Notes: generated from the sequence alone by a model not told the origin. A stretch of 64,000 nucleotides of DNA from an uncultured Gammaproteobacteria bacterium (GCA_964613815.1 CAZTKG010000004.1:25892-89891), one strand, 5' to 3'; positions 26,081 to 42,238 are shown, numbered from the stretch's first letter. Translations and numbers: made by a program.

Positions 26081-26146
26081 GCCAAGATGGTACCAAAACC
26101 AAGCCCCTCTTGACAAAACAACCAAAAAAACCTAAATTAACCCCTT

Positions 26147-26397
26147 CCATTTGCTCGTTCGACACCAGTCAACATCTGCGGACGCCCCGTCCCCAGAGAC
26201 GCCACCACCCAAAGCGTCAATCCGCTCTGCATATGCAACGATTGCTCAGATTTCATCAGAAATCAGAAAATCGCTGCATATGCACGACGTTCGTTTGCCC
26301 GAACCCCTCTTTCGGCACATACCTGCATCAAGATTCCCGCAAACGCACTCTAGATCAAACGAAATGGAACCCACCCCTAATAAAGGGGTAATTTTTA
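26147..26397 (+). ncRNA. small structured RNA unit A1 (family defined in findings)
   Basis: TTGACA 26110-15, 17 nt, TAAATT. 5' CCATTTGCTCGTT pairs with 3' AACGAAATGG (26358-67). Internal hairpin cTGC-GGACG-CCCC-GTCC-CCAGA. Terminator CCCCT..AGGGG plus T-run. Confidence 0.5.
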
Positions 26398-26433
26398 TTG
26401 ACAAATACAACCAAAACATCTAGAGTCCACTTT

Positions 26434-26648
26434 CCATTTGCTCGTTAGTCATCCGCTAACACTGCGGGCGCCTCGCCCCCAGAAAAAAGCATACCTGACA
26501 CGACCAGGCACGCTGCAAATATGCGACTTTTACCCGCTTCGCTCCAGTAAAAGTCGCATATTTGCCACTCAAGCTGCGCTCGAAGCCATCACGCAACTGT
26601 CATCAAGCGAAATGGAACTCACCCCCTAACGAAGGGGTATTTCTTTTT
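26434..26648 (+). ncRNA. small structured RNA unit A2
   Basis: TTGACA 26398-403, 17 nt, TAGAGT. 5' CCATTTGCTCGTT / 3' GCGAAATGG. Internal hairpin GGGCG-CCTC-GCCC and a perfect 19-bp stem GCAAATATGCGACTTTTAC/GTAAAAGTCGCATATTTGC. Terminator CCCCT-AACGA-AGGGG plus T-run. Confidence 0.5.
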
Positions 26649-26682
26649 GACAAATCCCCAAATTCCGCTAACCTAACCCCAT

Positions 26683-26937
26683 CAACTTGCTAGACGTCCT
26701 CGTCAACCTGCCCGCACCCCGCGGCCAGACCCAGACACACCCCCAAAGACCCCGAGTACAGAAAATCTCGCCTTAACGGAAATTTTGCTCCCAAACTCGC
26801 AAAATTATCCAACCAGTCAAGATTTTCTGCCGCTCCCGAGAGAAATCCGCCACTCGCCACAAGCGGCTTCACTCCGATTTCTCACGCTCCAAGTACCAAG
26901 CGAAGTTGACCCTCCCCGCCCAAAAGGCGGTTTTTCT
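26683..26937 (+). ncRNA. small structured RNA unit A3
   Basis: TTGACA 26647-52, TAACCT 26669-74. 5' CAACTTGCTAGACG / 3' AAGCGAAGTTG. Internal hairpin CCGCA-CCCC-GCGG-CCAGA. Terminator CCGCC-CAAAA-GGCGG plus T-run. Confidence 0.5.
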
Positions 26938-26941
26938 GTCC

Positions 26942-27024
26942 CATCTATCGCTCCGGCTCCGCCGAGCCCTATCGTCGAGCTCAGCTCGACCCTATCGTTC
27001 AGCTTTGCTGAATTCTATCACTCA
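26942..27024 (+). repeat. iteron-like direct repeats of (C/T)CTATCG spaced 23-28 bp, containing GGCTCCGCCGAGC
   Basis: Four CTATC(G/A) repeats. The same module recurs at 40001-40078 and partly at 40582-40640. Confidence 0.5.
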
Positions 27025-27035
27025 TGCTTAAAAGC

Positions 27036-27142
27036 TTGACAAATCACCCAAATTCCGCTAATCTCCCCCTCTGAATCAATCCCGATTCACCCCCGCTCCT
27101 TTCGCTTCGAATTGAGTACCACCCCGCGCAAAAGAGGCTATC
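27036..27142 (+). promoter_or_regulatory. promoter and leader of the RT gene
   Basis: TTGACAAATCACCCAAATTCCGCTAATCT is nearly identical to the unit A3 promoter TTGACAAATCCCCAAATTCCGCTAACCT. AAAGAGG RBS before ATG 27143. Confidence 0.55.
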
Positions 27143-28408
27143 ATGGCCAAGAAACCCCAAAAGGGACCCAAGCGCCCAGGTCAAAAAGGCTACAAGGACA
27201 ACAATTTCCAGTTGATCCTCGCCCTCCCGGCCCACTTCGCAGAGATGCTCCGCGAACTGCTTCACATCCATCAGTCCGACTGGGAAGTCCTCATGGACAT
27301 CCTCCGGCAAGGACACGAAGCCGCCTACAGAGAAGAAAAACGCCGAAAGGGCAACGGTGGCACACGCTACATCCATGCCCCCTGCGACACCCTCAAGGAC
27401 GTGCAGCGCAAGATCCTCAACCAGTTCCTCTCCCAGATCCCGATCCACTTCATTCGCTGGGGAGGCCGGAAGGGCAGCTCTGTCGTGAAGGCCGTCGACA
27501 ACGCCATCGGCGCTCGATACGCCTTCAGCATCGACATCATGAACGCCTTCCCGTCGGTCTTCCGAAGCCGAGTCCAGGCAGCCTTCATCGAGCCCGTACG
27601 CCACATGCTCCGCATGTACAAAGGTCTCGAGATATCCGAAGACGACATCAAAACCCTGGCCTACGCCCTCGCCGACCTCTGCATCCTCCACGACCGCCTC
27701 CCGCAGGGTCCACCTTCTTCGCCGCGAATCCTCGACATCGTCTCCTTCGGCATGGACCGCGACATCGGAGCCCTCGTCGGAGAGTACCGCACCCCCATCA
27801 ACAAGATGCATGCGTTCATCTGGGTCGACGACATCAACATCGTCAGCCACGAACCCATCCCAAAAATCGTGCAGGAAAAGCTGAAGGCAATCATCAGAAA
27901 GTACAAGTTCATGCCACACCACCGTCCTGGCAAGTGCGACTACTTCTCTGTCGAAACCGGCAGGTTCCCAATCCTCCTCGGGATCAACATCTTCACCGGA
28001 ACCCTCGCGCCCAAAACGGTCAGACGCTTCCGCAGCAAGCTCAACTGGCTTCTCAAGCAGAACACCTGGGGCGTCAAACAACTCCAAACGGCAGCCGGCA
28101 TCGTTGCCTACCTCGACCAGATCTACCCATCAACCGGTCGTCGTCGCAAGCGTCTTCCTTCAGCTCTCCGAGTCCTCGTCCCCCGCACTCGCGCCCGCAT
28201 CAAGGCCGAACGCGCCGGCGACCCGGTGACCATCAACATCACCGAAGTCGTCGAAGAGCTCCTCGCCGAAAAAGAAGAAAAAAACGGTCAGACCGGACGC
28301 AAGATCATCGACACCATCGTCCACGACGCCTCCGCAACCGGAGACCCCGACCACGACATCGAGATCCGCATCGCACTCGCTCAAGAGGCGCTCGCCGAAG
28401 CAAGCTGA
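27143..28408 (+). CDS. reverse transcriptase (stand-alone, retron-like fingers/palm; unusual V-D-D motif C)
   Basis: G-G-T-R-Y-I-H-A-P-C-D-T-L-K-D-V-Q-R-K-I-L (retron-like motifs 1-2), F-S-I-D-I-M-N-A-F-P-S-V (motif A), L-P-Q-G-P-P-S-S-P-R-I-L (motif B'), F-I-W-V-D-D-I-N-I-V (motif C), L-L-G-I-N-I-F-T-G-T downstream. Confidence 0.8.
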   Translation: MAKKPQKGPKRPGQKGYKDNNFQLILALPAHFAEMLRELLHIHQSDWEVLMDILRQGHEAAYREEKRRKGNGGTRYIHAPCDTLKDVQRKILNQFLSQIPIHFIRWGGRKGSSVVKAVDNAIGARYAFSIDIMNAFPSVFRSRVQAAFIEPVRHMLRMYKGLEISEDDIKTLAYALADLCILHDRLPQGPPSSPRILDIVSFGMDRDIGALVGEYRTPINKMHAFIWVDDINIVSHEPIPKIVQEKLKAIIRKYKFMPHHRPGKCDYFSVETGRFPILLGINIFTGTLAPKTVRRFRSKLNWLLKQNTWGVKQLQTAAGIVAYLDQIYPSTGRRRKRLPSALRVLVPRTRARIKAERAGDPVTINITEVVEELLAEKEEKNGQTGRKIIDTIVHDASATGDPDHDIEIRIALAQEALAEAS

Positions 28409-28823
28409 TCTCCTCAATCTCACCCTGTCGCTCGCCTACCTACCGAAAGGTAGAAGCAGCGACAGGGGATCCTATCTCGCCCTTCACCCAAAAGTGGAGA
28501 TCGAGTACGATCGAAACCTTCCCTGCAGTTTGCTTGAAAATCGGTCACCAAAAGACATTACGCGCCTAGCGTCATGCCGACCAATCACCCAAGACGACTA
28601 AGCCTCGCTGACAAAGACAAGCTTTGTCAGACGCGGTCAGGTACTCCGGTGAACAATGGGGGACGCGAGCTTCCCAATACGCCCACCTCCATACCTGACA
28701 GCGCTACCTCGTCAGTCGAAACTGCACCTTCCGGAAGTCCAACCAACTTCCGGGTTCTTATATCGCCCTTCTCCAAGCAGAAGGTCGGCAAAGGAACACC
28801 GAACATTTCATCAGGAGCACCCA

Positions 28824-29936
28824 ATGCTACAAGTCCGCGCCGTCGAAACAAACGGCAACATCACCTGGGAATTCCTCGACGAATCCCAAAGACGCTACTA
28901 CTTCGCCGAACTCGACGAACCATCCCATGACGCAGCCCCCACCCCAGATCACATCCCAAAACAACGATTCAACGACGGCGACATCTGGAACGCCGAGATC
29001 GTCCGCGCTGTAAGAGAAGGTCGCGACCGAGTCGCCTACATCCGACTCATCTCCCAAGTCCGAGACCTCTCACCCTGGGAATCCATCACCGAACTCCCTG
29101 GCTTCTGGACCGACCCAGACATGCTCAAGTCCGTCCTCGCTCTCTTCCATCTCAAAGCCTGCGTCCTCCTCAAAGGCTCAAAGGGAAGAGGAAAAACGAC
29201 CTTCATCTTCATGGTCGCCGAGCAGCTCGGCTGGCAGCACCCGTGCAAAGTCGACATGGCCGCCATCAAACGCGCCACCGACATCGCCGGCCAAAACGCC
29301 GCCAAGAAGGGAAGTACCCTCTTCCAGGGCTCCGAACTGTTCCACTTCCTCAAGCGGGCAGAAGCCGCCCACAAAGCAGGCCTCCTAGACACCTTCCCAG
29401 TCCTCCTCGACGAAATCGGCCGCGTCCACGCCAAAGCAACCGGCGCGCTCCACGGCCTGTTCGACGACACCCGCATGATCACGCTCACGACCGCAGAAGG
29501 CAGCATCACCTTCCGCATCCCCCCAAACGTCGTCATGATCGGCACGGCCAATATGGGATACGCCGGCAACTTCGAAGTCGACGAGGCACTCAAAGATCGC
29601 TTCATCGCGATCAACATGCCTCGCATCCCCACCGAAGAAGTGGCCAAGATCCTTATCGCAGAAGCCGGCATCACGCAACAACAAGCCCTCGACATCGCCC
29701 GCATGGGAGAAATCCTCGAGGACCTCTCTCGTCACGCCATCAGCTTCGCACCAAGTCTACGCGCACTCAAAGTCCTCGCCCAAATGGTCGCTCTCGGCTT
29801 CAACATGAAACAAGCCGCCTTCACCTGCCTCACCGGCTGGCTCGAAGGTGAGATCACCGACCACAGCTCAGAAGCCGGCAAAGCCTGGGTCGCCATCACC
29901 ACAAAGGCATCCGTCGACCCCGACGACGAAGAATAA
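28824..29936 (+). CDS. MoxR-like AAA+ ATPase (AAA_5/CbbQ/NorQ-like)
   Basis: CAGGAGCACCCA-ATG at 28824. Walker A L-L-K-G-S-K-G-R-G-K-T-T, Walker B V-L-L-D-E-I-G, sensor-1 I-G-T-A-N-M, Arg-finger region A-L-K-D-R-F. The upstream part of the 426-aa track ORF lacks an RBS. Confidence 0.75.
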   Translation: MLQVRAVETNGNITWEFLDESQRRYYFAELDEPSHDAAPTPDHIPKQRFNDGDIWNAEIVRAVREGRDRVAYIRLISQVRDLSPWESITELPGFWTDPDMLKSVLALFHLKACVLLKGSKGRGKTTFIFMVAEQLGWQHPCKVDMAAIKRATDIAGQNAAKKGSTLFQGSELFHFLKRAEAAHKAGLLDTFPVLLDEIGRVHAKATGALHGLFDDTRMITLTTAEGSITFRIPPNVVMIGTANMGYAGNFEVDEALKDRFIAINMPRIPTEEVAKILIAEAGITQQQALDIARMGEILEDLSRHAISFAPSLRALKVLAQMVALGFNMKQAAFTCLTGWLEGEITDHSSEAGKAWVAITTKASVDPDDEE

Positions 29937-29984
29937 CCCAACCTCCAGCAGAATCTCTGCTGGCTCATATCCTGAGCTCGATAC

Positions 29985-31440
29985 ACCACATCGAACCCAG
30001 GCCACGAGCAAATTGCTAGAACCTCTTCAAGAGACGGTCGCTAACCTTCTTGCGCCTCGCATCAAGTAGACCATTCACCCAACTCGACCAGCCCGGTCCA
30101 TCACGCCACTCTCAAGCGACGTGATCCCCGGATCGATACCATCCTACGTCAGGTATCGATTTCGACACCTCAGATTTCAATTACACACTTCCGGCTTCCA
30201 GCCTCCGTCGCGAAATCAAAATCAGAGGTGTCAAAACTATCGATCTCATTCGAATTTGCTTTTCACATCTTAACGGTTTGCTAGACTCCCAAAAGGGAAG
30301 GCCCCTCATCCGCACGCGCTTCGCGTCCGGTAGGCCAGTCACCCCTCGTGACCACGCATGACAGAAATCTGTCATGTCCTGTCATGTTGCTACTCACTCA
30401 TCGTTGAATGAGCAACATAATAACTTCCTCGCTCGCCACAACATGACAGAACCGAGCACGACAAGCGAAACCGTCCTAAACCACGCAACCTAAACACCGT
30501 GGTTTACCACGTCGCTCGCGCAGCGACGTGGCTCTTATCCCGCCCCTGAACCTCTCAGAGTCGGGAACCGAGTAAACTGCTAGAACCTCTCATCGGAGAG
30601 TCGGTCATTCATCTTCTTGCACCCAGCATTAAGTAGACCATTCACCCAGCTCGTCAAGCCCGGCCTCATCACGTCGCTCAAGAGCAACGCGACGAGGTCA
30701 TAACGTCACGACGTCACGATACCGTTACGGTAACGTCACGGTAACGTCACGTCATCAGAGGCCGTCGCCGAGTAACATCAACGCGCCGTAACGTCACCGT
30801 GACGTTACCGCAACGGCACTGTCGAGCTCTTACGAGTTTACTTCCTAGCGACTTGCTAGACACCCCGAAAGGGAAGGCCCCCTCATCCGCACGCGCCTCG
30901 CGTCCGGTAGGCCAGTCACCCCCAGAGGCCATGCCAGGGACAAACAAGTATGTCCCTGCTGGTCCCCTATCGCATTCGTCAGATGCATGGCGAACACGCT
31001 ATCACATCATGACTCACCGCGACAGGGACAAGCCAAGGCCATCCAGCGAAGTCGTTCCACCGTCGCCCACGCGACACCCTCCGGAGAATTCTCCGGGCTC
31101 TTATTCCGCCTCTGACCCAATCAGAGACGGAACATGGGCAAACTGCTAGAACCTTCTCGCAAGAGAAACGGCCATCAATCTTTCTGCGCCGTGCACCAAG
31201 TAGGCCATTCACCCGACTCGACCAACCCGGTCCTCCGGAAATGTCGGGAAACCCGATGCATTTTTACACGAGCTCGCGCGATATCGCGCGACCTTCCCTC
31301 CACTCGTTCGCGCGATATCGCGCGATCTAGCGCAAACAACGGGTCCTCACGAGTTTGCCACGCCAGAGGCCAAGCCTCTGGATTCTTCTATCGAGCTCCT
31401 CCCCGAGAAGCCCGACAAAAGAATCCCTAGCCCTTTCAAA
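29985..31440 (+). repeat. structured non-coding spacer: three diverged tandem composite units (modules E-C-var-D-var) plus perfect palindromes
   Basis: C modules 30010-30099, 30574-30665, 31139-31234 begin AAA(T/C)TGCTAGAACC. D modules 30278-30345 and 30852-30922 begin TTGCTAGAC. E modules 30530-30568 and 31095-31133. Palindromes GTAACGTCAC-c-GTGACGTTAC at 30788-30808 and TCGCGCGATATCGCGCGA at 31274-31291 and 31308-31325. Confidence 0.7.
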
Positions 31441-31451
31441 AGGAACCCAAA

Positions 31452-33269
31452 ATGCCCCTCTCTCCAACCGAAATCGCCCGCTCCCGCGCCATCCTCACCG
31501 CCATCTTCCCAGAACTCGTGAGCATCCTCCTCGCCATCACCGGAAGACCCGTCAAACTTGTCTGGGACCCCAACATCAGCACCGCAGCAACAGACTGCAA
31601 AGCAATTGTCTGGGCCAGCCCAAATCCATTCCTAAACGGATTCCCCGACGTTGGCAGAGGATCCACCATTCACGAAGGCGGCCACATCAAATGGTCACGC
31701 TTCGGCTCCCGTCTCATGCGCCAAGCCAAAGAAGAGGGAGGAGAAGGCCTCAGCCACCTCCTCAACCTCATCATGGACCGCCGAGACGACACCCTGAACG
31801 CAGACCATAACCCCGGCATAGCAACCTGCCTCCGCGCCCGCCTCGCCTACCTCTGCACCATGCAACACCGCCTCATGATGAAAGCCGCGGTGGACAGAGT
31901 CATGGCTCGCGAAGAAAAAAAACGATCATCGCCGTCACCACGCGCGATCAGAATCGCCGAACTTCGCAAAAAAAGAGACATGGACCCACGCGAAGTAGAC
32001 ACCCCTCGCCTCGAAGGCCGCGAAGCCGAAGACAAAATCACCAAACTCCTCTCCGGCGTAAAGCCAAAGGACGCTTGGGAAGACTTCTTCTTTGCCTGCA
32101 AGTGGCACAAAGGCGCCAGAACCCGCCGAGGCCGTAAAGCCATCAACATCATCGGCACCCAGCGCCTCCTCAAGGCAACCCCAGGTCAACTCCTCGGCCT
32201 CGCCAAACGCGTCCACACCATCCTCGGTGACCGCCCAAGCGAGCAAAAAACTCCACCACCCAAAGGATTCCAAAACCTCATCACAATCGCTCGCGCGATC
32301 GAACGAGGCGACAAAGAATCCATGGCAGCCCTACGCGCCATCGACCCCGACATGCACGCCGCAGTCATCCTGCTGCACACCATGGACCCAGGCATCGCCA
32401 AACTGCTCGGCAAGATGGCCAAACAGCATACGGCAAAGTCACGCGCAACCGGCATGGAGAAACTCAAAAAAATTCTCCAAACCGGATTCCGCCACCCAGG
32501 CCCAATCTCCATCGGAGACCCCGGAAAGGTCAAGGTCATAGAGCTTCCTCACAACGAAATTCACCGAGCAACGCACCGAGCTGTTCTCGCCGAAGTCGCA
32601 CATCTCAAAGACCAACTCGTCCGCACTCTCAGAAAACTCGACTCTCCAAGTGAATTCACGCTCTACGCCCAAGACGAAGGCGACGAACTCGACTTTGACG
32701 AAGTGGCCTCCATGGCATGCGGACTCGGCGGCAACTGGCAAGAAACCGTCATAGAACGCGACATCGACGCCCTCATCGCCATCGCAGCAGATATCAGCGG
32801 CTCCATGGGAGGAGAAAAACTCAGAGCGCTCCGAAGACTTCACGCCCTCCTCACAGAAGGCATCGAAGTTCTCGGCGACAGCGCAGAAGGCTACGCCTGG
32901 GCGTATCACTCACAGACCATCTTCGACCTCGGTCGCACCGCCCCAACAAGCGCCTTCCACACGCTCAAAGCAGACTACGGCAACTCTGACACCACCATGC
33001 TCACCATCGCCGGCACCCGCATGGCCATGTCCAAACGTCGCCAAAAAATCCTCTTCGTCATCACCGACAACGGCCCAGACAACATCCAGACAGCAGGGGA
33101 GAGAGCAAGACAACTCCTCGCAAGAGGCGTCCTCGTCATCCACATCATGGTAGACGTCCACGGCATCCCCGACATCTACCCAATCGAACTCCCATACGTC
33201 TCCATAGACGACCTCATAAACGGCGAGTTCAACAAACTCCTCACCCTCATCTTCAAACACTTGAAGTAA
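31452..33269 (+). CDS. two-domain protein: N-terminal HExxH (zincin-like) region plus C-terminal von Willebrand factor A domain
   Basis: I-H-E-G-G-H-I-K-W near the N-terminus. vWA MIDAS D-I-S-G-S-M-G-G-E then F-V-I-T-D-N-G. Terminator ATCCACGCACAACGTGGAT+T7 at 33270-33297. Confidence 0.7.
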   Translation: MPLSPTEIARSRAILTAIFPELVSILLAITGRPVKLVWDPNISTAATDCKAIVWASPNPFLNGFPDVGRGSTIHEGGHIKWSRFGSRLMRQAKEEGGEGLSHLLNLIMDRRDDTLNADHNPGIATCLRARLAYLCTMQHRLMMKAAVDRVMAREEKKRSSPSPRAIRIAELRKKRDMDPREVDTPRLEGREAEDKITKLLSGVKPKDAWEDFFFACKWHKGARTRRGRKAINIIGTQRLLKATPGQLLGLAKRVHTILGDRPSEQKTPPPKGFQNLITIARAIERGDKESMAALRAIDPDMHAAVILLHTMDPGIAKLLGKMAKQHTAKSRATGMEKLKKILQTGFRHPGPISIGDPGKVKVIELPHNEIHRATHRAVLAEVAHLKDQLVRTLRKLDSPSEFTLYAQDEGDELDFDEVASMACGLGGNWQETVIERDIDALIAIAADISGSMGGEKLRALRRLHALLTEGIEVLGDSAEGYAWAYHSQTIFDLGRTAPTSAFHTLKADYGNSDTTMLTIAGTRMAMSKRRQKILFVITDNGPDNIQTAGERARQLLARGVLVIHIMVDVHGIPDIYPIELPYVSIDDLINGEFNKLLTLIFKHLK

Positions 33270-33413
33270 TCCACGCACAACGTGGATCTTTTTTTAAACC
33301 AGCGAACAAATATCCATTCCCATTTCGACCAACGCGGAGAAATCTCTCTCAATAACAACATATAAATTAAACCAATCACTTGACAAAACAACCAAACCAT
33401 GCTAAATTCCCTC

Positions 33414-33650
33414 AGTGCTACGTGGCCCGACCACACCTCTTCTCGCGCCTCGCGACAAGTTTACGCACAACCTAAGCGGACCAAGCCTGGCGCTTGCGCG
33501 TCTCATGAGTTTGTCGCACTACGTCGCGACCGCACTTCATGACGCCCTTCGCCCATCATTGCGGACAGCTCTTATCCCTACGGGGACCTGTCCGCAACGT
33601 ACGCTCAATCTCAACGCCCGCCGTGCATGCACGGCGGGCGCCTTTGATTT
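33414..33650 (+). ncRNA. small structured RNA unit F (same family, variant ends)
   Basis: TTGACA 33379-84, 17 nt, TAAATT 33402-07. Internal hairpin cTTCTCGCG-CCTC-GCGAcAAG matching the family motif. Terminator CGCCCGCCGTGCATGCACGGCGGGCG plus T-rich tail. Confidence 0.5.
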
Positions 33651-33773
33651 AACAAACATTTCCACCCTCCCCCATCTCGACCCCGTGGAGAGATCTTGCA
33701 GCCCTGTCACATTCAAATTACGACAAAATTAAAATGGAGACGTCTCATTTTCTAAACAATTTCTCTAACGTTT

Positions 33774-36368
33774 TTACTTATCCCAACTATCTCCAACCAC
33801 TGGCTCTACCACAAGCGGAACCCCTCCCTCCGGCCAAACCCCCTCCATAATCCGCTTAATCTCCCCCATAGCCTCATCAACATCCCCCTCCGCAACCTCA
33901 AACACCAACTCATCATGCACCTGCACAAGCATCCCAACATCCAAATCGCTCTTCCTAGCCCATTCTTCAATCGCAATCATCGCCCGCTTCACCAAATCCG
34001 CCTGCGTCCCCTGAATCGGCATATTCACCGCCATCCGCTCCGCCTGCGCCCGAAGCATCCCCACGCCACTATCAATTCCCGGTAAATACCGTCGTCGCCC
34101 AAACGAAGTCTCAACATATCCATCCTCATGCGCCTTAACCTTCGTCTCATCAATATACCCCTGAATCCCAGGATGCACCCCAAAATATCGCTCAATAAAC
34201 CCCTTCGCCTCCTCCGCCTTCATCCCCGTATTCCGAGCCAAACTCCGCGACCCCATCCCATACAAAATCCCAAAATTAATCCCCTTAGCCGCCCGCCGCT
34301 CATCACTCGTAACAGCGCCCAACTCCTTATCAAGCACCTGCGCCGCCGTCAGCCGATGAATATCCGCCCCCTCCCGAAATGCCTCCAGAAACGCCTTATC
34401 GTCCGCAAGTACCGCAGCAACTCGAAGCTCAAACTGACTATAATCAGCCACAATAAACTTCTTCCCCTCATCAGCGACAAACGCCTTCCGAACCTCCCGC
34501 CCCATCTCCGTCCGAATAGGAATATTCTGCAAATTCGGATCATGACTGCTCAATCGACCAGTTGCCGTCACCGTCTGATCAAACGTCGAATGCACCCGCC
34601 CGTCACCGCCAACCATCGTCGGAAGCGCATCAACATACGTACTCTTCAACTTCGCCAGCTCCCGATACTTCCGCACAAGCCCCACAATCACATGCTGATC
34701 CGCAAGTTTATCAAGCTCACTAGCAGCCGTAGAAAACCCAGTCTTCGTTTTCTTAATTCCCTTCGTCGGAAGCGCCAAATCAACAAACAAAACATCCGCA
34801 AGCTGAGAAGGGGACTTAATATTAAACTCTCGCCCAGCAGCTTCATAAATAGTCTTCGTCAAAACCTCAAGCTCATCTCCAAGCCGCACAGAAAACGCAC
34901 CCAAAAACGCAGAATCAAGCAAAATCCCGCGCCGCTCCATCGCATACAAAACCCCAAGAAGCGGCATCTCAATCTCCTCAGCAAGCCGCAAAACCCCATC
35001 CTCCTCAAGCCGCTTCCGCAAAACATCCGCAAGCCCCTTCACACTCCGAACCGCATCCTCACCTTTCTTCAACTTGCCCCCAGGCAAATAATGATCCAAA
35101 AGCTCCTCCATCCCAAACGACCGATGATGATTCGCAACCAAATACCCCGCAACCTTCACATCAAAAACCTTTCCAAGCTCCCCGTCAAAATCAACCAAAT
35201 GCAAAATCCCTTTCAAATCATGAGCAACAATCACCTCAGCCCCATCAAGAACCTCCCGAAACACTCCCAAGTCAGCATCTTTCGGATCATCAACCACACA
35301 AACATCTCCACCACTCATCAGAGCAATCCTCCCAACCCGCTCTCCAAAAAGCCCAGGCTCCCGCTCCTCAACCCAAACAACAACTTCATCCCGCCCAACT
35401 AAATCACTCATTCCAACAGCCTTCCCACCTACAGGCTCCTCGCGTACATCACTATCACCACCCTCACCATCTTTCACGACAACCTCAACAGAACTCACAT
35501 CACCCTCATACTTCCGCGCAAGCGTCCGAAATCCTAACTCACCAAACATCTTCACAAGCCCCGCCGCATCAACCCCATCACAAACCGCATCTTCCAAATC
35601 AAACCCAGGCAACGCAACATCCCGCACAATCGTCACCAACTTCCGCATCGCCTCACACTCCTCCTGCTTACCCATAAGCTTCTTCTCCCACTTACTAGGC
35701 ATAAGCCCCTCATCAATCGCTCTGTAAACCCCCTCAATATCCTCAAACCGCTGCAACAACTCCATCGCACTCTTCTTCCCAATCCCCGCAATCCCCGGAA
35801 TATTATCACTAGAATCACCCATCAAAGCCTTATAATCAATCATCTGATCCGGCCGAATCCCATACCGCTCAACCACCGCAGCCGCATCATAAATCTTCGT
35901 CTCAGAAACCCCTCGCACAAACGAAACAACGCTCACCTGATCATCAACAAGCTGAAGCGCATCCATATCACCAGTCACAACAAAAACATCAAACCCTTTC
36001 TTCGGCCCATACTCCGCCGCAAGCGTCCCAATCACATCATCAGCCTCAAACCCAGGCGCCGAAAGGGAAGGGATGCCATACAAACTCATCACATCCTGAA
36101 TAATCTCAATCTGCGCATACAACTCATCAGCCTTTTCCTCGCGCCCAGCCTTATAATCCTCATAAAGCTCATCCCGAAACGTCCCCCCAGGCAAATCCCA
36201 AGCAACCACAAAATAATCAGGCGTGAACAGCTTCCGCATTTTCTCCACAATATTCGTAAACCCAAAAACCGCATTCACCACACGTCCATCATCTGTCGTA
36301 AGCGGAGGAACCGCATGCCAAGCCCGATGCAAAAGCGCATTCCCATCCAAAATCAAAACCTTTTTCAT
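33774..36368 (-). CDS. polA: DNA polymerase I (5'-3' exonuclease plus polymerase domains)
   Basis: N-terminal L-I-L-D-G-N-A-L-L-H-R-A-W-H. Pol motifs R-R-A-A-K-G-I-N-F-G-I-L-Y-G and Q-V-H-D-E-L-V-F-E. Confidence 0.9.
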   Translation of the reverse strand: MKKVLILDGNALLHRAWHAVPPLTTDDGRVVNAVFGFTNIVEKMRKLFTPDYFVVAWDLPGGTFRDELYEDYKAGREEKADELYAQIEIIQDVMSLYGIPSLSAPGFEADDVIGTLAAEYGPKKGFDVFVVTGDMDALQLVDDQVSVVSFVRGVSETKIYDAAAVVERYGIRPDQMIDYKALMGDSSDNIPGIAGIGKKSAMELLQRFEDIEGVYRAIDEGLMPSKWEKKLMGKQEECEAMRKLVTIVRDVALPGFDLEDAVCDGVDAAGLVKMFGELGFRTLARKYEGDVSSVEVVVKDGEGGDSDVREEPVGGKAVGMSDLVGRDEVVVWVEEREPGLFGERVGRIALMSGGDVCVVDDPKDADLGVFREVLDGAEVIVAHDLKGILHLVDFDGELGKVFDVKVAGYLVANHHRSFGMEELLDHYLPGGKLKKGEDAVRSVKGLADVLRKRLEEDGVLRLAEEIEMPLLGVLYAMERRGILLDSAFLGAFSVRLGDELEVLTKTIYEAAGREFNIKSPSQLADVLFVDLALPTKGIKKTKTGFSTAASELDKLADQHVIVGLVRKYRELAKLKSTYVDALPTMVGGDGRVHSTFDQTVTATGRLSSHDPNLQNIPIRTEMGREVRKAFVADEGKKFIVADYSQFELRVAAVLADDKAFLEAFREGADIHRLTAAQVLDKELGAVTSDERRAAKGINFGILYGMGSRSLARNTGMKAEEAKGFIERYFGVHPGIQGYIDETKVKAHEDGYVETSFGRRRYLPGIDSGVGMLRAQAERMAVNMPIQGTQADLVKRAMIAIEEWARKSDLDVGMLVQVHDELVFEVAEGDVDEAMGEIKRIMEGVWPEGGVPLVVEPVVGDSWDK

Positions 36369-36435
36369 AAAAAATAATCTAAAATCAAAACAAAACTACC
36401 CACACTTTACCACGAAAAAAGCCGCCATTGGCGAC

Positions 36436-36966
36436 TTATTTCTCAATCTTCTTTCCTTTGATAAGCGCAGTAATCATCCGCCTCGTAATCCGCCGCTTTC
36501 CGCGCTGACTAATCTCATCCGCAATCTTCAACGCATCAACTCCAGTACACCATTGATGATCATCAAACTCCGACTTCTCAATATCAAACTCAGAAGAAGC
36601 GACATCGCACACAACCGCGTAATACCGCTTACCTCGCATCATAACTTCCGACCCATCGTCAAGATTCATTGGTCGTGTTCCTCGTTTTTCAGCAAGAAAC
36701 TCTACCTCATCCTCATGAATCAACGTCCCAAAAGTAATCTGACCACCAAAATCCTCTCCAAGCTCCTCTTTCATCTCTCGACAAAGCGCCGTATTCAAAT
36801 CCTCTCCATTTTCAATCCCACCTTGCGCTAATTGCCAAAGTTTATATTCTTCATGGAAAACCATCAAAAGCTTCCCATCATGAACAACACAACCGACAAC
36901 AACCGGACGAAATCCGCGCTGTCGAACTGAATCAATTTGCTCCAATGTTGGCATTTTCATGCCCAA
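36436..36966 (-). CDS. Nudix hydrolase
   Basis: Nudix box G-G-I-E-N-G-E-D-L-N-T-A-L-C-R-E-M-K-E-E-L-G. Confidence 0.75.
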   Translation of the reverse strand: MGMKMPTLEQIDSVRQRGFRPVVVGCVVHDGKLLMVFHEEYKLWQLAQGGIENGEDLNTALCREMKEELGEDFGGQITFGTLIHEDEVEFLAEKRGTRPMNLDDGSEVMMRGKRYYAVVCDVASSEFDIEKSEFDDHQWCTGVDALKIADEISQRGKRRITRRMITALIKGKKIEK

Positions 36967-37197
36967 ACGCTAGCACAAATAGCCAATCTTGGCAAGAATA
37001 CAACAAAATCGAGTACAATCTACTTGACCACACGCAATTCACCTGCTAATATCCCACAGCTCATTACTCTTTCTGTCCCTCTGGCGTCAGTACCTCTACA
37101 GAGGGACAGGCTCCCACAACCCCCCAAGGCATGACGCTGCCAAAGGGGGTTATTTTTTTCCAAACGAAAAAGACTTCTCTTACAAGAAGTCTTTTTC

Positions 37198-37273
37198 TGG
37201 GGCGACTAGAGGGAATCGAACCCTCACTAGGGGCACCACAAACCCCTGTGCTAACCGTTACACCATAGCCGCC
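37198..37273 (-). tRNA. tRNA-His (anticodon GTG) with encoded G-1 and CCA
   Basis: Manual fold: G-1, acceptor GCGGCTA/TAGTCGC (one G-U), anticodon loop TTGTGGT, T-arm GAGGG-TTCGATT-CCCTC, discriminator C, CCA. Terminator hairpin follows at ~37155-37195. Confidence 0.8.
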
Positions 37274-37340
37274 ATGTTTTTTTCTTACTCTTCGAATGAG
37301 CCGTGCCAACAACCTAACCAAACTCACGCGTGAGAGGCCT

Positions 37341-37462
37341 GCCAGAAGGGGTAAGTTGCTGTGTGGTGGTGATTCTTTTGTACAACCGCAGTAAGACGTA
37401 CACATAGTACGTAGTCGAGGATTGTACAAAAAATCTCCGCCACACAGCAACTTGGCCCCTTC
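37341..37462 (-). ncRNA. 122-nt long hairpin in the tRNA-Arg(TCT) 3' trailer (copy 2 of 2)
   Basis: Collinear with 22771-22892. Arms differ from copy 1 at paired positions. Confidence 0.55.
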
Positions 37463-37539
37463 TGGTGCACCTGGCAGGACTTGAACCTGCAACCTTGAGG
37501 TTAGAACCCTCCTGCTCTATCCAATTGAGCTACAGGTGC
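37463..37539 (-). tRNA. tRNA-Arg (anticodon TCT), CCA encoded
   Basis: Manual fold: acceptor GCACCTG/CAGGTGC, anticodon loop GTTCTAA, T-arm GCAGG-TTCAAGT-CCTGC, discriminator A, CCA. Confidence 0.85.
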
Positions 37540-37662
37540 TCATTGCGTGCAGCAAATATACATGAATTAACCAAATAAATCAACCCTACTCACCCAAAAT
37601 CACCCTCAACTTGAGACTGACAAAAATAAAACGACTTCCATCCATCCAATCACCTGCAACAC

Positions 37663-38595
37663 CTATTCCTCCTTTCCATGATGCTTCTGATGCACCTCTT
37701 TCAAACGCTTATCCGTCACATGCGTGTAAACCTGCGTCGTCGTAATGGACTCATGCCCAAGCATGCTCTGCACACTCCGAATGTCCGCCCCGCTCCGCAA
37801 TAAATCCGTCGCAAATGTGTGCCGAATCGTATGCGGCGTAATCCGTTTCGCAATTCCTGCACTTCTAGCATACTTCTCAATCGTCCGCTGAATCGACCGA
37901 GGAGTAAGCGCTCCAGGTTCCCCGCGCCCAGCCTTAGCCCGATCATGACTCACAAATAAATGAGGCGACAAATCCTGCCGAGCTTCAACATAATCACGCA
38001 CCGCATCCTTAGCAGTTTCGCTCATAAACACCACACGATGCTTACTACCCTTGCCCTTAACCGTAAACTCATCCCTCTTCAAATTTAAATCATCAATCAA
38101 AAGCTTAGAAAGCTCACTAACACGAAGCCCCGTACTAAAAAGCATCTCCAAAATAGCCGAATCCCGAAGCCCAATGATCCCCGGCGTCTTATCAACCGCC
38201 AAAAACATCTCCTTCAAATCCTCTGGCTCCAAAAACTCCACCTTCCGAGTCTCATGTTTCGCAAGTTCGATCTTCTCCGGACTAAGCGTCTTCACATCAA
38301 TCTTGTGCAAATACTTCAAAAAAGACCGTAAAGCAATCAAATGATAATTCTGCGTCGTCTTTTTCAAATTCACATCATCCCGCCCCTCAACCTCACGATT
38401 CAAAAACAACCGATATTGCCGAACCATCTCCAAATCAATCTTATCCGGGGCAGGATACTTCGCCCATTTCCCAAACCGACTCAAATAAAAGTCATAATTC
38501 TGAATAGTATTCGCACTTCGACCACGCTCAACCTCCAAATACTCCAAAAATTGCGTAATAAGCTCCTGCAAACGACTCTTTTTTCCCATAAACAA
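37663..38595 (-). CDS. xerC: tyrosine site-specific recombinase XerC/XerD family
   Basis: R...H-T-I-R-H-T-F-A-T, L-G-H-E-S-I-T-T-T-Q-V-Y-T-H-V catalytic tyrosine region, N-terminal SAM-like domain. Confidence 0.8.
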   Translation of the reverse strand: MFMGKKSRLQELITQFLEYLEVERGRSANTIQNYDFYLSRFGKWAKYPAPDKIDLEMVRQYRLFLNREVEGRDDVNLKKTTQNYHLIALRSFLKYLHKIDVKTLSPEKIELAKHETRKVEFLEPEDLKEMFLAVDKTPGIIGLRDSAILEMLFSTGLRVSELSKLLIDDLNLKRDEFTVKGKGSKHRVVFMSETAKDAVRDYVEARQDLSPHLFVSHDRAKAGRGEPGALTPRSIQRTIEKYARSAGIAKRITPHTIRHTFATDLLRSGADIRSVQSMLGHESITTTQVYTHVTDKRLKEVHQKHHGKEE

Positions 38596-39036
38596 TAATC
38601 AAAACTTCAATACCAACATTATACGACACAAAACTACCACCTCCTAATTCCCATCCTGAGGCGCGCCAGCCCTAGCGCGCCGGAAGGATCTCACAGCAAA
38701 ACCATCGAATATTAGCCAAATAAGTCAAAAACACCCAACATCTGCCAATCATCACTTGACAAAAACCAAAAAACAAGCTAGTCTATAGAGTCAGTATCAA
38801 AATTCCTCACAAGCAAGCTAGAGAAAAATCCCATGCATGTTTTTCTCCAGCTCACTCATCAAAAGGGAATATCAATATTCCCATCCCCTCAAAGGAAATC
38901 ATTTCGAATGATGTCTTCTAAGGGGATCACGTTCGACACCAACAACGGGCCCGTCCAGCCCAAAAAAACAAAATCACCGCAAGGAGGTGACAGGACAAGC
39001 ACGACGAATTTACATTCCACAACCCAAGGAGTAGGA

Positions 39037-39408
39037 ATGTCTCGTCGCGATGCCCGGTGCCAGGGCCAATGGCACACAATCACCGTCAACGTGATCAACA
39101 TCCCACGCGAGGGAGGGAGAATGATCGTTACGCAAGAGCAGAGGTCAATTTGCACCTGCTGGCTCTGCGAAGACCATTTCTACCTCACCGGATGTCCAAT
39201 CCTTCGTCCAACCATGCATGCCAAGAAGAAGCCGTTCACCACGGCCGAATCCAAAGCGCGCATCGGAGACGAGAACGGATTCATCCCAACCCCGCAAACC
39301 CCCCGCGTCCGAACGCCAAGCGCAGAGCTCAAACTCAAGCGCAGGCGCAAAGAACGCGGATCAGATCGCCGCTATCACCGCCAGTGGCTCCTCTCCCAGC
39401 GAGACTAG
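39037..39408 (+). CDS. small Cys-rich protein (possible zinc ribbon); start may instead be ATG ~38908
   Basis: AGGAG 6 nt before ATG 39037. C-x-G-x-W-H...C-T-C-W-L-C-E-D-H...C-P cysteines. Consensus promoter TTGACAAAAACCAAAAAA at ~38757 with a ~250-nt leader. Confidence 0.4.
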   Translation: MSRRDARCQGQWHTITVNVINIPREGGRMIVTQEQRSICTCWLCEDHFYLTGCPILRPTMHAKKKPFTTAESKARIGDENGFIPTPQTPRVRTPSAELKLKRRRKERGSDRRYHRQWLLSQRD

Positions 39409-39483
39409 CAGCGATCCGTCCCCTCGGCTAACACCGAGGGGTTTCGCTTTACAAAAAACCAAAAAATCGCTAATATCATCACC

Positions 39484-39744
39484 TCGATTTGCTAGATCAA
39501 AAAACCTGGTCCCTTCCCGCGCCCCGTGGCAAGACCCTCAAACACACCAATCGACCCCGACATAGACATTCACGAGACCAAAACTCTCGACAAGCTCAAC
39601 TTTTGGTCCCTAAAATCTCTATTCAAATCTCACTGTGACGAGCTCTCACGCCGTGACCACGGCACTCGAGATCGTGCAAACGATATTTGACTCTGGTCAA
39701 CAAGCGAAATCGAGCTTCAACCCTCACAAGGTTGCTTTTTTTTG
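39484..39744 (+). ncRNA. small structured RNA unit B1
   Basis: TTTACA 39448-53, 17 nt, TAATAT. 5' TCGATTTGCTAGATC / 3' AAGCGAAATCGA (39702-13). Internal hairpin cTTCCCGCG-CCC-CGTGG-CAAGA. Terminator CAACC-CTCAC-AAGGTTG + T8. Confidence 0.5.
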
Positions 39745-39766
39745 ATCGAAATGCTAATTTTGCCCT

Positions 39767-40000
39767 TCGATTTGCTAACCGCCGCTGGCCCCGGCACTCT
39801 CGTATCGACATACTAGATAAATCGATATGCCTCCCCGCGCCCCGCGGCGAGAAAAGCGAACACCCTACCAGATCAGGGGAAAGTTCTTCGATCCTTTCCG
39901 AAACCGTTCCGCGATGCTGACCACCTACGGCACTCACCAGCACAGAACGTTCCCAAGCCTCAAGCGAAATCGAGCATCAACCCAATCGGGTTGCTTTTTT
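39767..40000 (+). ncRNA. small structured RNA unit B2 (weak promoter)
   Basis: 5' TCGATTTGCTAACC / 3' AAGCGAAATCGA (39962-73). Internal hairpin cTCCCCGCG-CCC-CGCGG-CGAGA. Terminator CAACCCAATCGGGTTG+T6. Confidence 0.45.
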
Positions 40001-40137
40001 CTATCGCCCGGCTCCGCCGCGCCCCTGTCGTCGAACTCAACTCGACCCTATCGTTCAGCCTCTGAACCCTATCGCCCAAAACCTCCATCATCAACATCAC
40101 CATTGACGCATTTCACCATTACTGCTAAATTCACCCC

Positions 40138-40559
40138 TCGATTTGCTAGATCGACACCCTTCGATCCCTCTCCGCGCCTCGCGGCGAGACCCCGAAATAC
40201 ACGGACAGACCAAACCCCGTACACAAAAGGACAAACTCTACGCGTTAGTCCTTTCATGTACGGCCCGAGTCGCGCACAGACCTATCGTTACCGATTCTAC
40301 GGTCAATGCGCGCCTTCCGGTACTAGTATCAAGCGAAATCGAGCCCTTACAGCTTGTTAGATGTAAACCGCATCACCTCCCGCGCCCCGCGGCAGGACCA
40401 GCGCACACACCGCGCGACCAGGATTGCCCATAAATGGGAAAGTCCCGAAACTGACGAGTTTATGTCACCCGCCTTCGGCAAACTCCAGAAACTCGATCAG
40501 TTTCGGCACTCAAGCCCTTCATCGAAGCTGTACCCCCTCGCAAATGCGAGGATTTTTAA
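40138..40559 (+). ncRNA. small structured RNA unit B3 plus a degenerate promoter-less half (B3b)
   Basis: TTGACG 40103-08, 17 nt, TAAATT. 5' TCGATTTGCTAGATCGAC, internal cTCTCCGCG-CCTC-GCGG-CGAGA, 3' AAGCGAAATCGA 40331-42. Second internal hairpin cTCCCGCG-CCC-CGCGG-CAGGA at ~40375. Terminator CCTCGCAAATGCGAGG+ATTTTT at 40535-59. Confidence 0.45.
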
Positions 40560-40682
40560 TATGCCGGGGGCATATTAACCCTTCGTAGCTCGGCTCCGCC
40601 GAGCGAAGAACGGGTAATCATCGCAAAACTCTATCACCCCCTCCATTGACACGTAACCCAATCCACTCCAAACTAAATCCAT

Positions 40683-40960
40683 TCGATTTGCTCTCAGTTG
40701 CTAACTGCAACCGCCACGCTTCTTAGTCCGGAATAAGCAGCGATCGTCCTCGCGCCCCGCGAAGACAGGCACCTACACAAAACGCCAATGCCGAAAGCAT
40801 TGCTCCAATGCGCGCATTGGTTCAATTATTTCGCACAAACGAACACTCAACTGACAGAATCGCATGCCACAAAACCATACGACACCTGTCAGTCAAGCGT
40901 CAGTTTGACCAAGGGCAACAAGCGAAATCGAACCTCAACCCCAACGGGTTGACTTTTTTT
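40683..40960 (+). ncRNA. small structured RNA unit B4
   Basis: TTGACA 40646-51 with a weak -10. 5' TCGATTTGCTCTC, internal gTCCTCGCG-CCC-CGCGA-AGACA, 3' AAGCGAAATCGA 40920-31. Terminator CAACCCCAACGGGTTG+T7. Confidence 0.45.
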
Positions 40961-40983
40961 CACCAAACCGCTATATTCACCTC

Positions 40984-41264
40984 TCGATTTGCTCCCCCGT
41001 TGCTAGCTACAACCGCTACGCCACTCAGTCTAGAATGAGTAGCAAAAGATCCTCGCGCACTGCGAAGACAGAGCAACCCACATCAAAAGTCCATGGCACT
41101 AAATCCGTGTAGCCAATTCTTGTCTCAACTGATTTAGTTGCTTTCTACGCCCGAATGAATGCATCAGTCGCTCAAATACCGCCAAATGCATTTACATCCC
41201 AGTCGCAGAAAGCACAGGACCAACAAGCGAAATCGAGCCTCAGTCCTCACGGGCTATTTTTTCT
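40984..41264 (+). ncRNA. small structured RNA unit B5
   Basis: TTGACT 40949-54, 17 nt, TATATT. 5' TCGATTTGCTCCC, internal TCCTCGCGC-ACT-GCGAAGACA, 3' AAGCGAAATCGA 41224-35. T-run at 41258-64. Confidence 0.45.
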
Positions 41265-41299
41265 TGACAAAAAACCAAAAAAACACTAACCTAACCTCT

Positions 41300-41551
41300 T
41301 CGATTTGCTAGATCGACCCTCCTCGATCCCTTCCCGCGCCCCGCGGCAAGACCCCGAGCTGGACCCCAAGTCCATACCTGACTAAGCCTGACATTCCTAC
41401 GTCTGTCAGCTTTGTCAGTAACCCGTCAGCAGATAAGTCGCTCACTATGCGCAGAATATTTGCACACCAATCGCGACTGCATACTACTGACGGCTTACCT
41501 CCGAACAACAAGCGAAATCGAACTCTCCCGCCAAAAACGGGATCTTTTTTT
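41300..41551 (+). ncRNA. small structured RNA unit B6
   Basis: TTGACAAAAAACCAAAAAAACAC-TAACCT promoter 41264-92. 5' TCGATTTGCTAGATCGACC, internal cTTCCCGCG-CCC-CGCGG-CAAGA, 3' AAGCGAAATCGA 41510-21. Terminator CCCGCCAAAAACGGG+T7. Confidence 0.5.
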
Positions 41552-41609
41552 CAAAACAAATCACCCCACCCCATTGACAAAACACAAAAACCATACTATC
41601 TTAACCACC

Positions 41610-41850
41610 TCGATTTGCTAGATCGACCACCTCGATCACTCCCTGCGCCCCGCAGCGAGACCCCGAGCCAGACACGAAGTCCGTACCTGACCGTCGCGGA
41701 CAACCGCTAAGCGTCCGTCCACGCCCTTCAAGTCCCGTCAATGGACTGCCGGCTCACCGAGCAATAAATACGCCCGCTCACGACAAGTCCATTGACCGTC
41801 CTCAAGGGCAACAAGCGAAATCGAACTCTCCGCCACCGGCGAGTTTTTTT
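41610..41850 (+). ncRNA. small structured RNA unit B7
   Basis: TTGACA 41574-79, 17 nt, TATCTT. 5' TCGATTTGCTAGATCGACC, internal cTCCCTGCG-CCC-CGCAG-CGAGA, 3' AAGCGAAATCGA 41813-24. T7 run. Confidence 0.5.
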
Positions 41851-41945
41851 ATCCCATAAACCATCTTTCACCTCTTAAAAGCATTTTTGTTATTCATTGA
41901 CAAATACAAACAATTAAACTAGTATTAGCAATTGTTCATTCATCA

Positions 41946-42238
41946 CGACTTGCTAGATCGTCTCAACCGATCCCTTCCCGCGCTACGCGGCAAGAATAAC
42001 GGATACACACAACGTCCATAGGCGTCCGTCCTCTCATCGACTATTCAATCGAGCAAGTAAACCATAACTTGCTCTCAAAAAATATTCGCTCGAGGAGGAC
42101 TTAAGCGGACGGCTGGGGCTGCCCTTCTGTCCGTACAGGACAGAGGCTGTCCTTATGTAAGGACAGAAGGTTTGCCCCCTCCTGCTTATTCCCTATCATT
42201 CGAAGTCGTGCCGTCCGCCAATACTGGCGGATTTTTAA
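41946..42238 (+). ncRNA. small structured RNA unit B8 (variant terminal helix CGACTT/AAGTCG)
   Basis: TTGACA 41897-902, 17 nt, TAGTAT. 5' CGACTTGCTAGATCG, internal cTTCCCGCG-CTA-CGCGG-CAAGA, 3' CGAAGTCG 42201-08. Two tandem hairpins TCTGTCC-GTACA-GGACAGA and CTGTCCTTA-TG-TAAGGACAG. Terminator CCGCCAATACTGGCGG+ATTTTT. Confidence 0.45.

Follow-up and report, generated by a model that had tools for sequence, protein, structure and literature searches.

Arrays of putative template RNA genes associated with a retron-clade reverse transcriptase and a MoxR/vWA gene pair

In a 64,000-nt stretch of DNA deposited as belonging to an uncultured Gammaproteobacteria bacterium (GCA_964613815.1, CAZTKG010000004.1:25892-89891; the whole stretch is referred to here as the window), we analyzed a reverse transcriptase (RT) operon and the small structured RNA units that lie within and around it. 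The unit is 185-270 nt long and occurs in 19 copies, all on the + strand, between positions 26146 and 42209. Thirteen copies stand alone (A1-A3, F, and B1-B9) and 6 lie inside the RT operon (C0-C5), which also encodes a MoxR-type AAA+ ATPase and a protein with a von Willebrand factor A (vWA) domain. We think it probable that the units are template RNAs of the msr-msd type, belonging to an unclassified retron lineage restricted to Candidate Phyla Radiation (CPR) bacteria, in which one RT serves arrays of RNAs and has the MoxR/vWA pair as partner.

Architecture and covariation of the units

From 5' to 3', each unit consists of a 5' arm of 7-9 nt (a1), GCU (usually GCUAGA), a short hairpin of variable sequence, a second hairpin (3-bp outer stem, 1x1 or 2x2 internal loop, 4-5-bp inner stem, and a CCC, CCU, or CUU loop), an A(G/A)AC-rich linker, a middle of 90-190 nt, the sequence (A)AGCG or (A/T)(C/T)ACG, and a 3' arm (a2) that pairs with a1. 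The a1/a2 helices are 7-9 bp long, and the window units, unit F excluded, have 11 different canonical arms. In the 18 window units whose arms are canonical, as in every tabulated unit of related loci (described below), the nucleotide directly after a1 is a G, and a C occupies position -2 before a2 in 17/17 tabulated window units and 23/24 tabulated units of the relatives. The units form 3 groups, namely A1-A3 (26146-26909), C0 (28525-28725) with C1-C5 (30008-31358), and F (approximately 33414-33605) with B1-B9 (39484-42209); C1-C5 is a duplicated two-unit module of approximately 566 nt with spacer hairpins. A first-pass annotation of the window had placed about 13 such units on this strand. 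All those it named exist where it put them, but the B cluster contains 9 units and not 8, and C0-C5 were absent from its list. Its picture of about twelve copies, each with its own transcription and none linked to the RT, did not hold, as 6 copies sit within the RT operon.

Units were sought with a scan for a 7-nt arm followed by GCT and, 120-420 nt downstream, CG followed by the complementary arm, and with a covariance model of their 5' module (R1), run unfiltered on both strands of the window (128 kb in total). The arm scan returned 17 matches on the + strand, every one a unit, and 5 unrelated matches on the - strand. R1 returned 17 matches of 34-62 bits, all on the + strand, from 26143 to 42003, with no further match above 11 bits on either strand and thus no copies elsewhere in the 64-kb window. 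B5 and B6 were only partly detected by R1 because both carry insertions; insertions of approximately 40 nt lie between GCU and the conserved hairpin in B2, B5, and B6. An Rfam scan at gathering threshold detected tRNAs only and no family for the units. MicroRNA-type matches that appeared in the E-value mode of Rfam reflect the long hairpin of C3 and were discarded as noise.

Because some units were found via arm complementarity, pairing of each unit with its own arm was compared with a cross-unit control. An exact 7-nt Watson-Crick complement of the own 5' arm was present 100-330 nt downstream in 17/19 units, versus 8/298 (2.7%) in the cross-unit control (Fisher p = 3e-20). This Watson-Crick-only test was used in place of a control allowing G-U pairs, which was uninformative (24% background). 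The second hairpin was not used in finding the units. In a MAFFT alignment of the 17 full units, the terminal helix and the second hairpin were jointly 95.6% paired; when the partners were slid by 1-3 columns, pairing was 34-46%. Compensatory changes were found in 12/16 pairs of these two helices, and the observed covariation score was reached in 0/500 shuffles. RNAalifold, unguided, returned the same two helices, and unconstrained single-sequence minimum free energy folds recovered the terminal helix and both small hairpins, with long hairpins in the middles. Covariation had been proposed beforehand for both the terminal helix, with the arm pairs TCGATTT/AAATCGA, (T)CCATTT/AAATGG(A), CAACTT/AAGTTG, and CGACTT/AAGTCG, and the small hairpin, and the pairs as well as the covariation of both elements are confirmed by these analyses. 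Over 22 kb, the window does not differ from two further public contigs of this organism, except for one mismatch in one contig; therefore, population-level covariation was not obtainable.

The middles behave differently from the 5' modules: the latter are 68-76% identical within a class, whereas the mutual similarity of the middles (0.53) is that of shuffled sequence (0.52), yet they contain long perfect inverted repeats. The longest perfect stems are those of A2 (19 bp, as described previously), C5 (18 bp), and C3 (15 bp). Searching the middles against the rest of the window gave only 11-14-nt chance matches, and 22-mers from the A2 and C3 hairpins had no exact match in IMG/VR (a spot check with two 22-mers). 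A spacer-like reading of the middles was discarded on these grounds, namely the lack of mutual similarity and of an IMG/VR match in the spot check.

A promoter-like site precedes 12/13 stand-alone units, the exception being B4, and the distance from the end of the -10 hexamer to a1 is 6-7 nt in most of them and 19 nt in B9. The form of this site, TTGACA-N17-TAnnnT, is the general promoter form of this genome, also present before the RT gene, rpsO, and other protein-coding genes. A terminator (hairpin plus T-run) follows all stand-alone units but B3; the terminators begin 3-5 nt after a2. The σ70-like promoters and intrinsic terminators ascribed to the units in the first-pass annotation are thus present except for the promoter of B4 and the terminator of B3, with the longer spacing in B9. 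Since B4, which has no promoter, directly follows B3, which has no terminator, these 2 units are predicted to form one two-unit transcript. The in-operon C units have neither promoter nor T-run; hairpins without a T-run trail C0, C2, C4, and C5. Separately, a motif (C/T)TCTTAT(C/T)CCGCC occurs 3' of the hairpins after C0, C2, and C4 (28730-28765, 30503-30571, and 31080-31137, respectively), followed after C2 and C4 by a second hairpin, CTCTGA...TCAGAG. These hairpin and motif elements could be processing or protein-binding sites.

These data also bear on whether only the in-operon units serve the RT, with the stand-alone A, F, and B units being decayed or selfish duplicates without a function of their own, such as unit cassettes copied at the DNA level. 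Such a history would agree with the absence of the B array from the xerC-rpsO-pnp region of the nearest relatives (see below), which indicates a recent lineage-specific expansion, with the insertions in B2, B5, and B6, and with unit F having no canonical a2. We nevertheless judge it improbable, as 12/13 stand-alone units have intact arms, 13/13 keep the conserved small hairpin with compensatory changes, 12/13 have a promoter-like site, and a terminator follows all but B3; moreover, a CPR genome of the 1-Mb class is unlikely to keep approximately 4 kb of dead sequence.

The RT operon and its relatives in CPR genomes

The best PADLOC matches of the window RT were retron RT models, with E-values of 1e-26 to 1e-15 (RT_III-A, 1.3e-26, VI, and II-A), and the models of defense-associated RTs (DRTs) and unknown-group (UG) RTs were not among the 25 PADLOC matches listed for it. 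A profile built from this RT and 9 homologues matched only retron RTs in the PDB (Ec86, 1e-19; Ec67, Kva2, Ec83, and Ec78), with no non-retron PDB match at E<=0.001. By these sequence comparisons, the window RT is a member of the retron clade. In a library of 1.84 billion proteins, strong full-length matches to the family amount to approximately 20-30 clusters at 50% identity, and matches number 62 at E<=1e-30 and 6022 at E<=1e-10. This continuum of weaker matches fits a small clade within a large retron-like superfamily. No relatives of the RT were found in IMG/VR. The window RT itself was not retrieved at 100% identity from the public protein collection, and the products of the neighboring genes were.

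The ATPase gene probably starts at 28824 rather than at 28656, as judged from alignment to its homologues, and C0 is therefore intergenic; a 426-aa ATPase open reading frame (ORF) that overlaps C0 (28656-28823) is probably a gene-calling artefact. Among solved structures, the vWA domain of the third gene product is closest to NorD vWA domains in complex with NorQ, a MoxR ATPase. Directly after the RT stop codon and before C0, at 28418-28470, lies a strong hairpin, CCCTGTCGCT...AGCGACAGGG.

The organism belongs to the CPR/Patescibacteria: its polynucleotide phosphorylase (PNPase) is 100% identical to a public protein present on 13 contigs, and the next PNPase relatives, approximately 70% identical, are labelled Candidatus Uhrbacteria or Patescibacteria. 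The named records of the RT family all come from CPR genomes, except for some labelled 'uncultured Gammaproteobacteria', and these labels are probably wrong.

Of the non-redundant related loci, 13 extend beyond the ATPase gene, and 13/13 of these keep the order RT, AAA_5 ATPase, vWA protein (570-605 aa), with intergenic gaps ranging from near zero to 2.8 kb. Units of the relatives were located with a descriptor consisting of an arm, GCT[TA]GA, and the complementary arm, with controls. In most of these loci, the intergenic gaps hold from 2 to 6 or more units per operon, and these have the form a1 (8-9 nt) followed by GCTTGA(C/T)C and, at the 3' end, (A/G)TCC, ACG, or TCG followed by a2. At sites selected by the motif TGCT[TA]GA[CT] only, an exact 7-nt complement of the own arm was present downstream in 25/36 cases, versus 2.4% in the cross-locus control (p = 1.5e-28). 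The relatives use 23 distinct arm sequences, their units fold alike with very long hairpins in the 3' half, and descriptor matches are 8-fold denser inside the operon spans than elsewhere.

Because the operon order is kept and most related loci hold several units, we consider the arrays a trait of the whole family; the features specific to the lineage analyzed here are the stand-alone promoter-to-terminator copies, the 2.8-kb B array, and the size of the set. In the two nearest sequenced relatives, the syntenic xerC-rpsO-pnp interval contains no B array and gave no R1 matches. Neighboring in-operon units with identical arms were also observed in some relatives (ACCCAGTTT three times at L019 13292-14395 and TTTTGGTT twice at L010 12923-13903), as among the B units of the window, a sign that units were recently duplicated locally in more than one lineage. 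A pattern scan of IMG/VR for the 5' module returned 11 matches of approximately 17 bits or less, versus 42-62 bits for insertion-free units, which we judged to be due to chance; the top match lies inside a 536-codon open frame on a contig of approximately 64 kb and has no a2.

Having their own promoters and terminators and no Rfam match, the units could also be seen as a family of regulatory small RNAs that is independent of the RT and near it by chance, an alternative that the first-pass annotation had offered as an unrelated lineage-specific family. The presence of 6 units within the RT operon, the occurrence of units in the gaps of most related RT-ATPase-vWA operons, their 8-fold enrichment in the operon spans, and their strict co-occurrence with this RT make this very improbable.

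The retron reading and its alternatives

Retron non-coding RNAs (ncRNAs) are flanked by the inverted repeats a1 and a2, with the branching G at the end of a1 and the msd copied from next to a2 (PMC7736814; 10.1101/2024.07.21.604473), and their msr consists of 1-3 short stem-loops followed by an msd with a long stem-loop (10.1101/2024.07.21.604473). The msr-msd sequence of retron Ec86 was found at 100% identity in 48 E. coli genomes, beside a gene annotated as a retron effector. Its junctions, a1-GCGAG... and ...CTGACG-a2, have the same form as those of the window units (...TTT|GCTAGA and ...AAGCG|AAATCGA). In Ec86 we take this G to be the branch point and this C to be the first templated base. 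The retron-like reading of the first-pass annotation is thus strengthened by the clade of the RT, the layout a1-G-msr hairpins-msd hairpin-a2, and the Ec86-type junction.

In this reading, the system consists of a retron-clade RT, the MoxR-type AAA+ ATPase, the HExxH and vWA protein, and arrays of ncRNA genes instead of one gene, and we propose that it may act as follows. Within each RNA, the 5' arm a1 would pair with the 3' arm a2. The RT would recognize the conserved 5' module, GCUAGA and the two small hairpins, as the msr and, by analogy with retrons, would use as primer the 2'-OH of the invariant G that directly follows a1. It would then copy the variable, hairpin-rich middle (msd), starting from the invariant C two nucleotides 5' of a2, and the products would be up to 19 different branched hairpin single-stranded DNAs (ssDNAs). 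The partners of these ssDNAs may be the RT and the MoxR/vWA pair; the latter is likely an effector or threshold module, and analogy would suggest a role in defense for it. The in-operon C0-C5 units would be supplemented in trans by the 13 stand-alone copies, predicted to be transcribed from ordinary strong promoters.

Several observations weigh against this interpretation. The RT matches no characterized retron type: the NCBIfam model retron_St85 scored 91 bits against a cutoff of 235, the PADLOC matches are partial, and the system corresponds to none of the 13 described retron types (I-XIII), whose type-specific models were not reached. The motifs NAxxH and VTG are specific to retron RTs (PMC7736814); all 9 RT homologues have NAxxH and V(V/I)TG, but in the window RT NAxxH is replaced by KAVDNAIG and VTG by ILLG, with the catalytic WVDD intact. 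In addition, 4/10 members of the RT family (P0002, P0005, P0007, and P0008) have xxDN and not xxDD as catalytic motif, which raises the question whether every member polymerizes; judging from this motif, polymerase activity may be changed or lost in part of the family. The R1 model derived from the window did not detect the units of the relatives, which is why the descriptor was used for them, and it is therefore architecture, and not alignment, that supports family-wide homology of the internal hairpins. In unit F, both small hairpins are retained, but a canonical a2 is missing and the closing helix is shifted onto GCU. Finally, in the literature consulted, neither multiple ncRNAs per RT nor a MoxR/vWA partner is reported for retrons.

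Some of these points would also suit RT-associated ncRNAs with a non-retron mechanism, either templates whose ends are brought together by a1/a2 closure, allowing template jumping or cDNA synthesis of the rolling-circle kind known from DRT2, or scaffolds or regulators of an RT-MoxR-vWA complex that are never copied. DRT2 combines a UG2 RT with an ncRNA and performs rolling-circle reverse transcription (PMC12039810). A terminal helix closing a template-like region fits this logic, the number of ncRNAs per RT is unlike that of known retrons, and the loss of NAxxH and VTG in the window RT together with xxDN in 4/10 family members could mean altered or absent polymerase chemistry. DRT2 likewise has an RT with a neighboring structured ncRNA in which a helix joins the ends of the template region. 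It differs in its RT, which is of the UG/abortive infection (Abi) clade, and in having a single pseudoknotted ncRNA without a branching-G junction, whereas the putative templates here are unrelated to one another and rich in hairpins. On the rolling-circle alternative raised in the first-pass annotation the sequence does not decide, but the RT clade disfavors it, the PDB matches and the listed PADLOC matches being to retron RTs only. As the retron priming junction is reproduced by the invariant G that follows a1 and the CG that precedes a2, and as long hairpins like those of the middles typify an msd, we consider a non-retron mechanism of either kind unlikely, although less so than the alternatives discussed above.

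With known retrons the system shares the retron-clade RT, an ncRNA closed by a1/a2, accessory genes in the same operon, the G 3' of a1 and the CG 5' of a2, and two short msr-like and long msd-like hairpins. It differs in that retrons have one ncRNA each, and the CPR operons 2-6 or more, with 19 in this genome, of which 13 stand alone. The retron ncRNA lies upstream of the RT, and the units here lie downstream of it and between the accessory genes. Here, a MoxR AAA+ ATPase is the partner together with an HExxH-vWA protein, and the lineage was found only in CPR. In the paper that defined the 13 retron types (PMC7736814), the term 'AAA' is absent from the main text.

ATPases and vWA proteins of this kind are known from other contexts. 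MoxR-vWA conflict systems have been described, some of them coupled to RTs of diversity-generating retroelements (DGRs) (Kaur et al. 2020, PMC7159879; PMC10907252), and they resemble the present operon in the genetic coupling of a MoxR AAA+ ATPase and a vWA protein to an RT. In those systems, however, a DGR-type RT mutagenizes a protein-coding variable region, whereas the RT here is of the retron type. According to one survey, approximately 80% of RTs in CPR/Patescibacteria are of the DGR type (PMC8632793). A DGR reading was rejected here: no unit middle has a variable-repeat partner in the window, and the RT profile has no non-retron PDB match. Motif 4 of the window RT is QGPPSSP and not the SQ form known from DGR RTs. 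The ATPase matches AAA_5 and CbbQ_C and the vWA domain of the third gene product is closest to NorD, a likeness to the NorQ/NorD and CbbQ/CbbO remodelling pairs, but no link to nitric-oxide reductase or Rubisco is present here, and the N-terminal part of the vWA protein, helical and with HExxH, is distinct.

Engineered retron arrays ('multitrons') reportedly contain several msr-msd units with different msd inserts for one RT and are synthetic constructs for multiplexed genome editing. They likewise have several units per RT, while the arrays described here are natural and include units predicted to be independently transcribed. As an analogy only, CRISPR arrays also alternate constant structured scaffolds with unrelated inserts beside enzyme genes; here, however, cas genes are absent, the variable parts consist of 90-190-nt hairpins that are self-complementary, and no protospacer-like matches were seen in a spot check. 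The contrast between conserved scaffolds and inserts that are saturated yet perfectly self-complementary hints that a dedicated process, not drift, replaces or generates the inserts. We tentatively suggest, as a possibility that we hold at clearly less than even confidence, that the system is a natural 'retron array', in which one RT uses a library of at least 19 templates, each a constant scaffold (a1-G, two hairpins, CG-a2) with an unrelated hairpin insert, to produce a repertoire of distinct multicopy single-stranded DNAs (msDNAs) coupled to a MoxR/vWA effector, and that the inserts, replaced or generated by a dedicated process, form a diversifiable set of nucleic-acid sensors or decoys in these ultra-small CPR bacteria. 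In this view, the operon would supply part of the templates, and the larger part would be made in trans from the stand-alone genes with their constitutive promoters.

Retrons are usually seen as one RT, one ncRNA, and one effector. If the retron reading is correct, a lineage that has arrays of template RNAs as a rule, here with 19 copies and independent promoters, would change this one-RT-one-ncRNA picture and provide a natural precedent for multiplexed retron arrays, which otherwise exist as engineered tools only. Its compact RT, presumably accepting many inserts in one scaffold, would be of interest for ssDNA production and genome editing, and a MoxR/vWA-coupled RT system would be added to the poorly known biology of the CPR/Patescibacteria. 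The design of a constant scaffold with unrelated inserts also poses the testable question of where the inserts originate. In the literature, we found no natural multi-ncRNA retrons or retron-MoxR-vWA systems; priority is uncertain, as one preprint (bioRxiv 10.64898/2026.09.22.753630) may or may not cover this system. By term counts, 'ncRNA array' occurs 10 times in that preprint, with reverse transcriptase and cDNA, and MoxR, vWA, AAA+, ATPase, msDNA, and Patescibacteria occur 0 times.

Feature coordinates and genomic context

Coordinates of the units, of the operon genes, and of a repeated element are given in Table 1. The neighboring genes are housekeeping genes: rmuC, holA, polA, tRNA genes, a gene for a XerC/D-type recombinase, rpsO, and pnp.

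Table 1. Features of the window, in positions counted from its first nucleotide
Feature	Span	Strand	Promoter	RNA	Terminator or trailing hairpin	Remarks
Unit A1	26110..26397	+	26110-26138	26146-26368	terminator 26373-26397	arms TCCATTT/AAATGGA
Unit A2	26398..26646	+	26398-26426	26433-26616	terminator 26621-26646	perfect hairpin (19 bp) at 26515-26565
Unit A3	26647..26937	+	26647-26674	26682-26909	terminator 26916-26937	arms TCAACTT/AAGTTGA
CTATCG element, first copy	26940-27030	+
RT gene	27143-28408	+	27036-27064			421 aa; catalytic WVDD
Unit C0	28525-28725	+			trailing hairpin 28730-28754	arms GCAGTTT/AAACTGC; RT-ATPase intergenic region
MoxR-type AAA+ ATPase gene	28824..29936	+				AAA_5; CbbQ/NorQ-like; Walker A GSKGRGKT, Walker B LLDE
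C1-C5 tandem in-operon array	30008..31381	+
Unit C1	30008-30259	+
Unit C2	30273-30474	+
Unit C3	30572-30841	+
Unit C4	30848-31055	+
Unit C5	31138-31358	+			trailing hairpin 31363-31381
Third operon gene	31452..33269	+				605 aa; N-terminal invariant HExxH (HEGGH, residues 74-78); C-terminal vWA/MIDAS (DISGS)
Unit F	33380..33650	+	33380-33408	from ~33414	strong terminator 33615-33650
Unit B1	region 39448..40000	+	39448-39476	39484-39713	terminator 39718-39742
Unit B2	region 39448..40000	+		39767-39973	terminator 39978-40000
CTATCG element, second copy	40000-40085	
Unit B3	region 40103..40558	+	40103-40131	40138-40342	no terminator
Unit B4	region 40103..40558	+		40348-40532	terminator 40536-40558	arms TACAGCTT/AAGCTGTA; GTT in place of GCT
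CTATCG element, third copy	40575-40640	
Unit B5	region 40648..42238	+	own	40683-40931	own terminator
Unit B6	region 40648..42238	+	own	40984-41236	own terminator
Unit B7	region 40648..42238	+	own	41300-41521	own terminator
Unit B8	region 40648..42238	+	own	41610-41824	own terminator
Unit B9	region 40648..42238	+	own	41945-42209	own terminator	arms ACGACTT/AAGTCGT

A public 177-aa ORF call across B2-B3 (39827-40360) is probably a gene-calling artefact over ncRNA genes. Immediately upstream of the B array lies a 191-aa ORF (38833-39408) with a consensus promoter at 38756, for which no Pfam, NCBIfam, or PADLOC match was found.

The CTATCG element is approximately 80 nt long and consists of CTATCG repeats, each with a 6-bp hairpin; it contains GGCTCCGCCG and has exactly 3 copies in the window (0.11 expected by chance). 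The 3 copies of the element lie just 3' of the terminators that close sub-arrays (those of A3, B2, and B4), and the next -35 hexamer (of the RT gene, B3, and B5, respectively) follows 55-95 nt downstream. This element could be an operator or a recombination site. On the + strand, over nearly the full length of the window, the GC skew is mostly -0.2 to -0.55, fading toward the 3' end, and the AT skew is positive, both independently of gene orientation; this compositional asymmetry is unusually strong for a bacterial chromosome.

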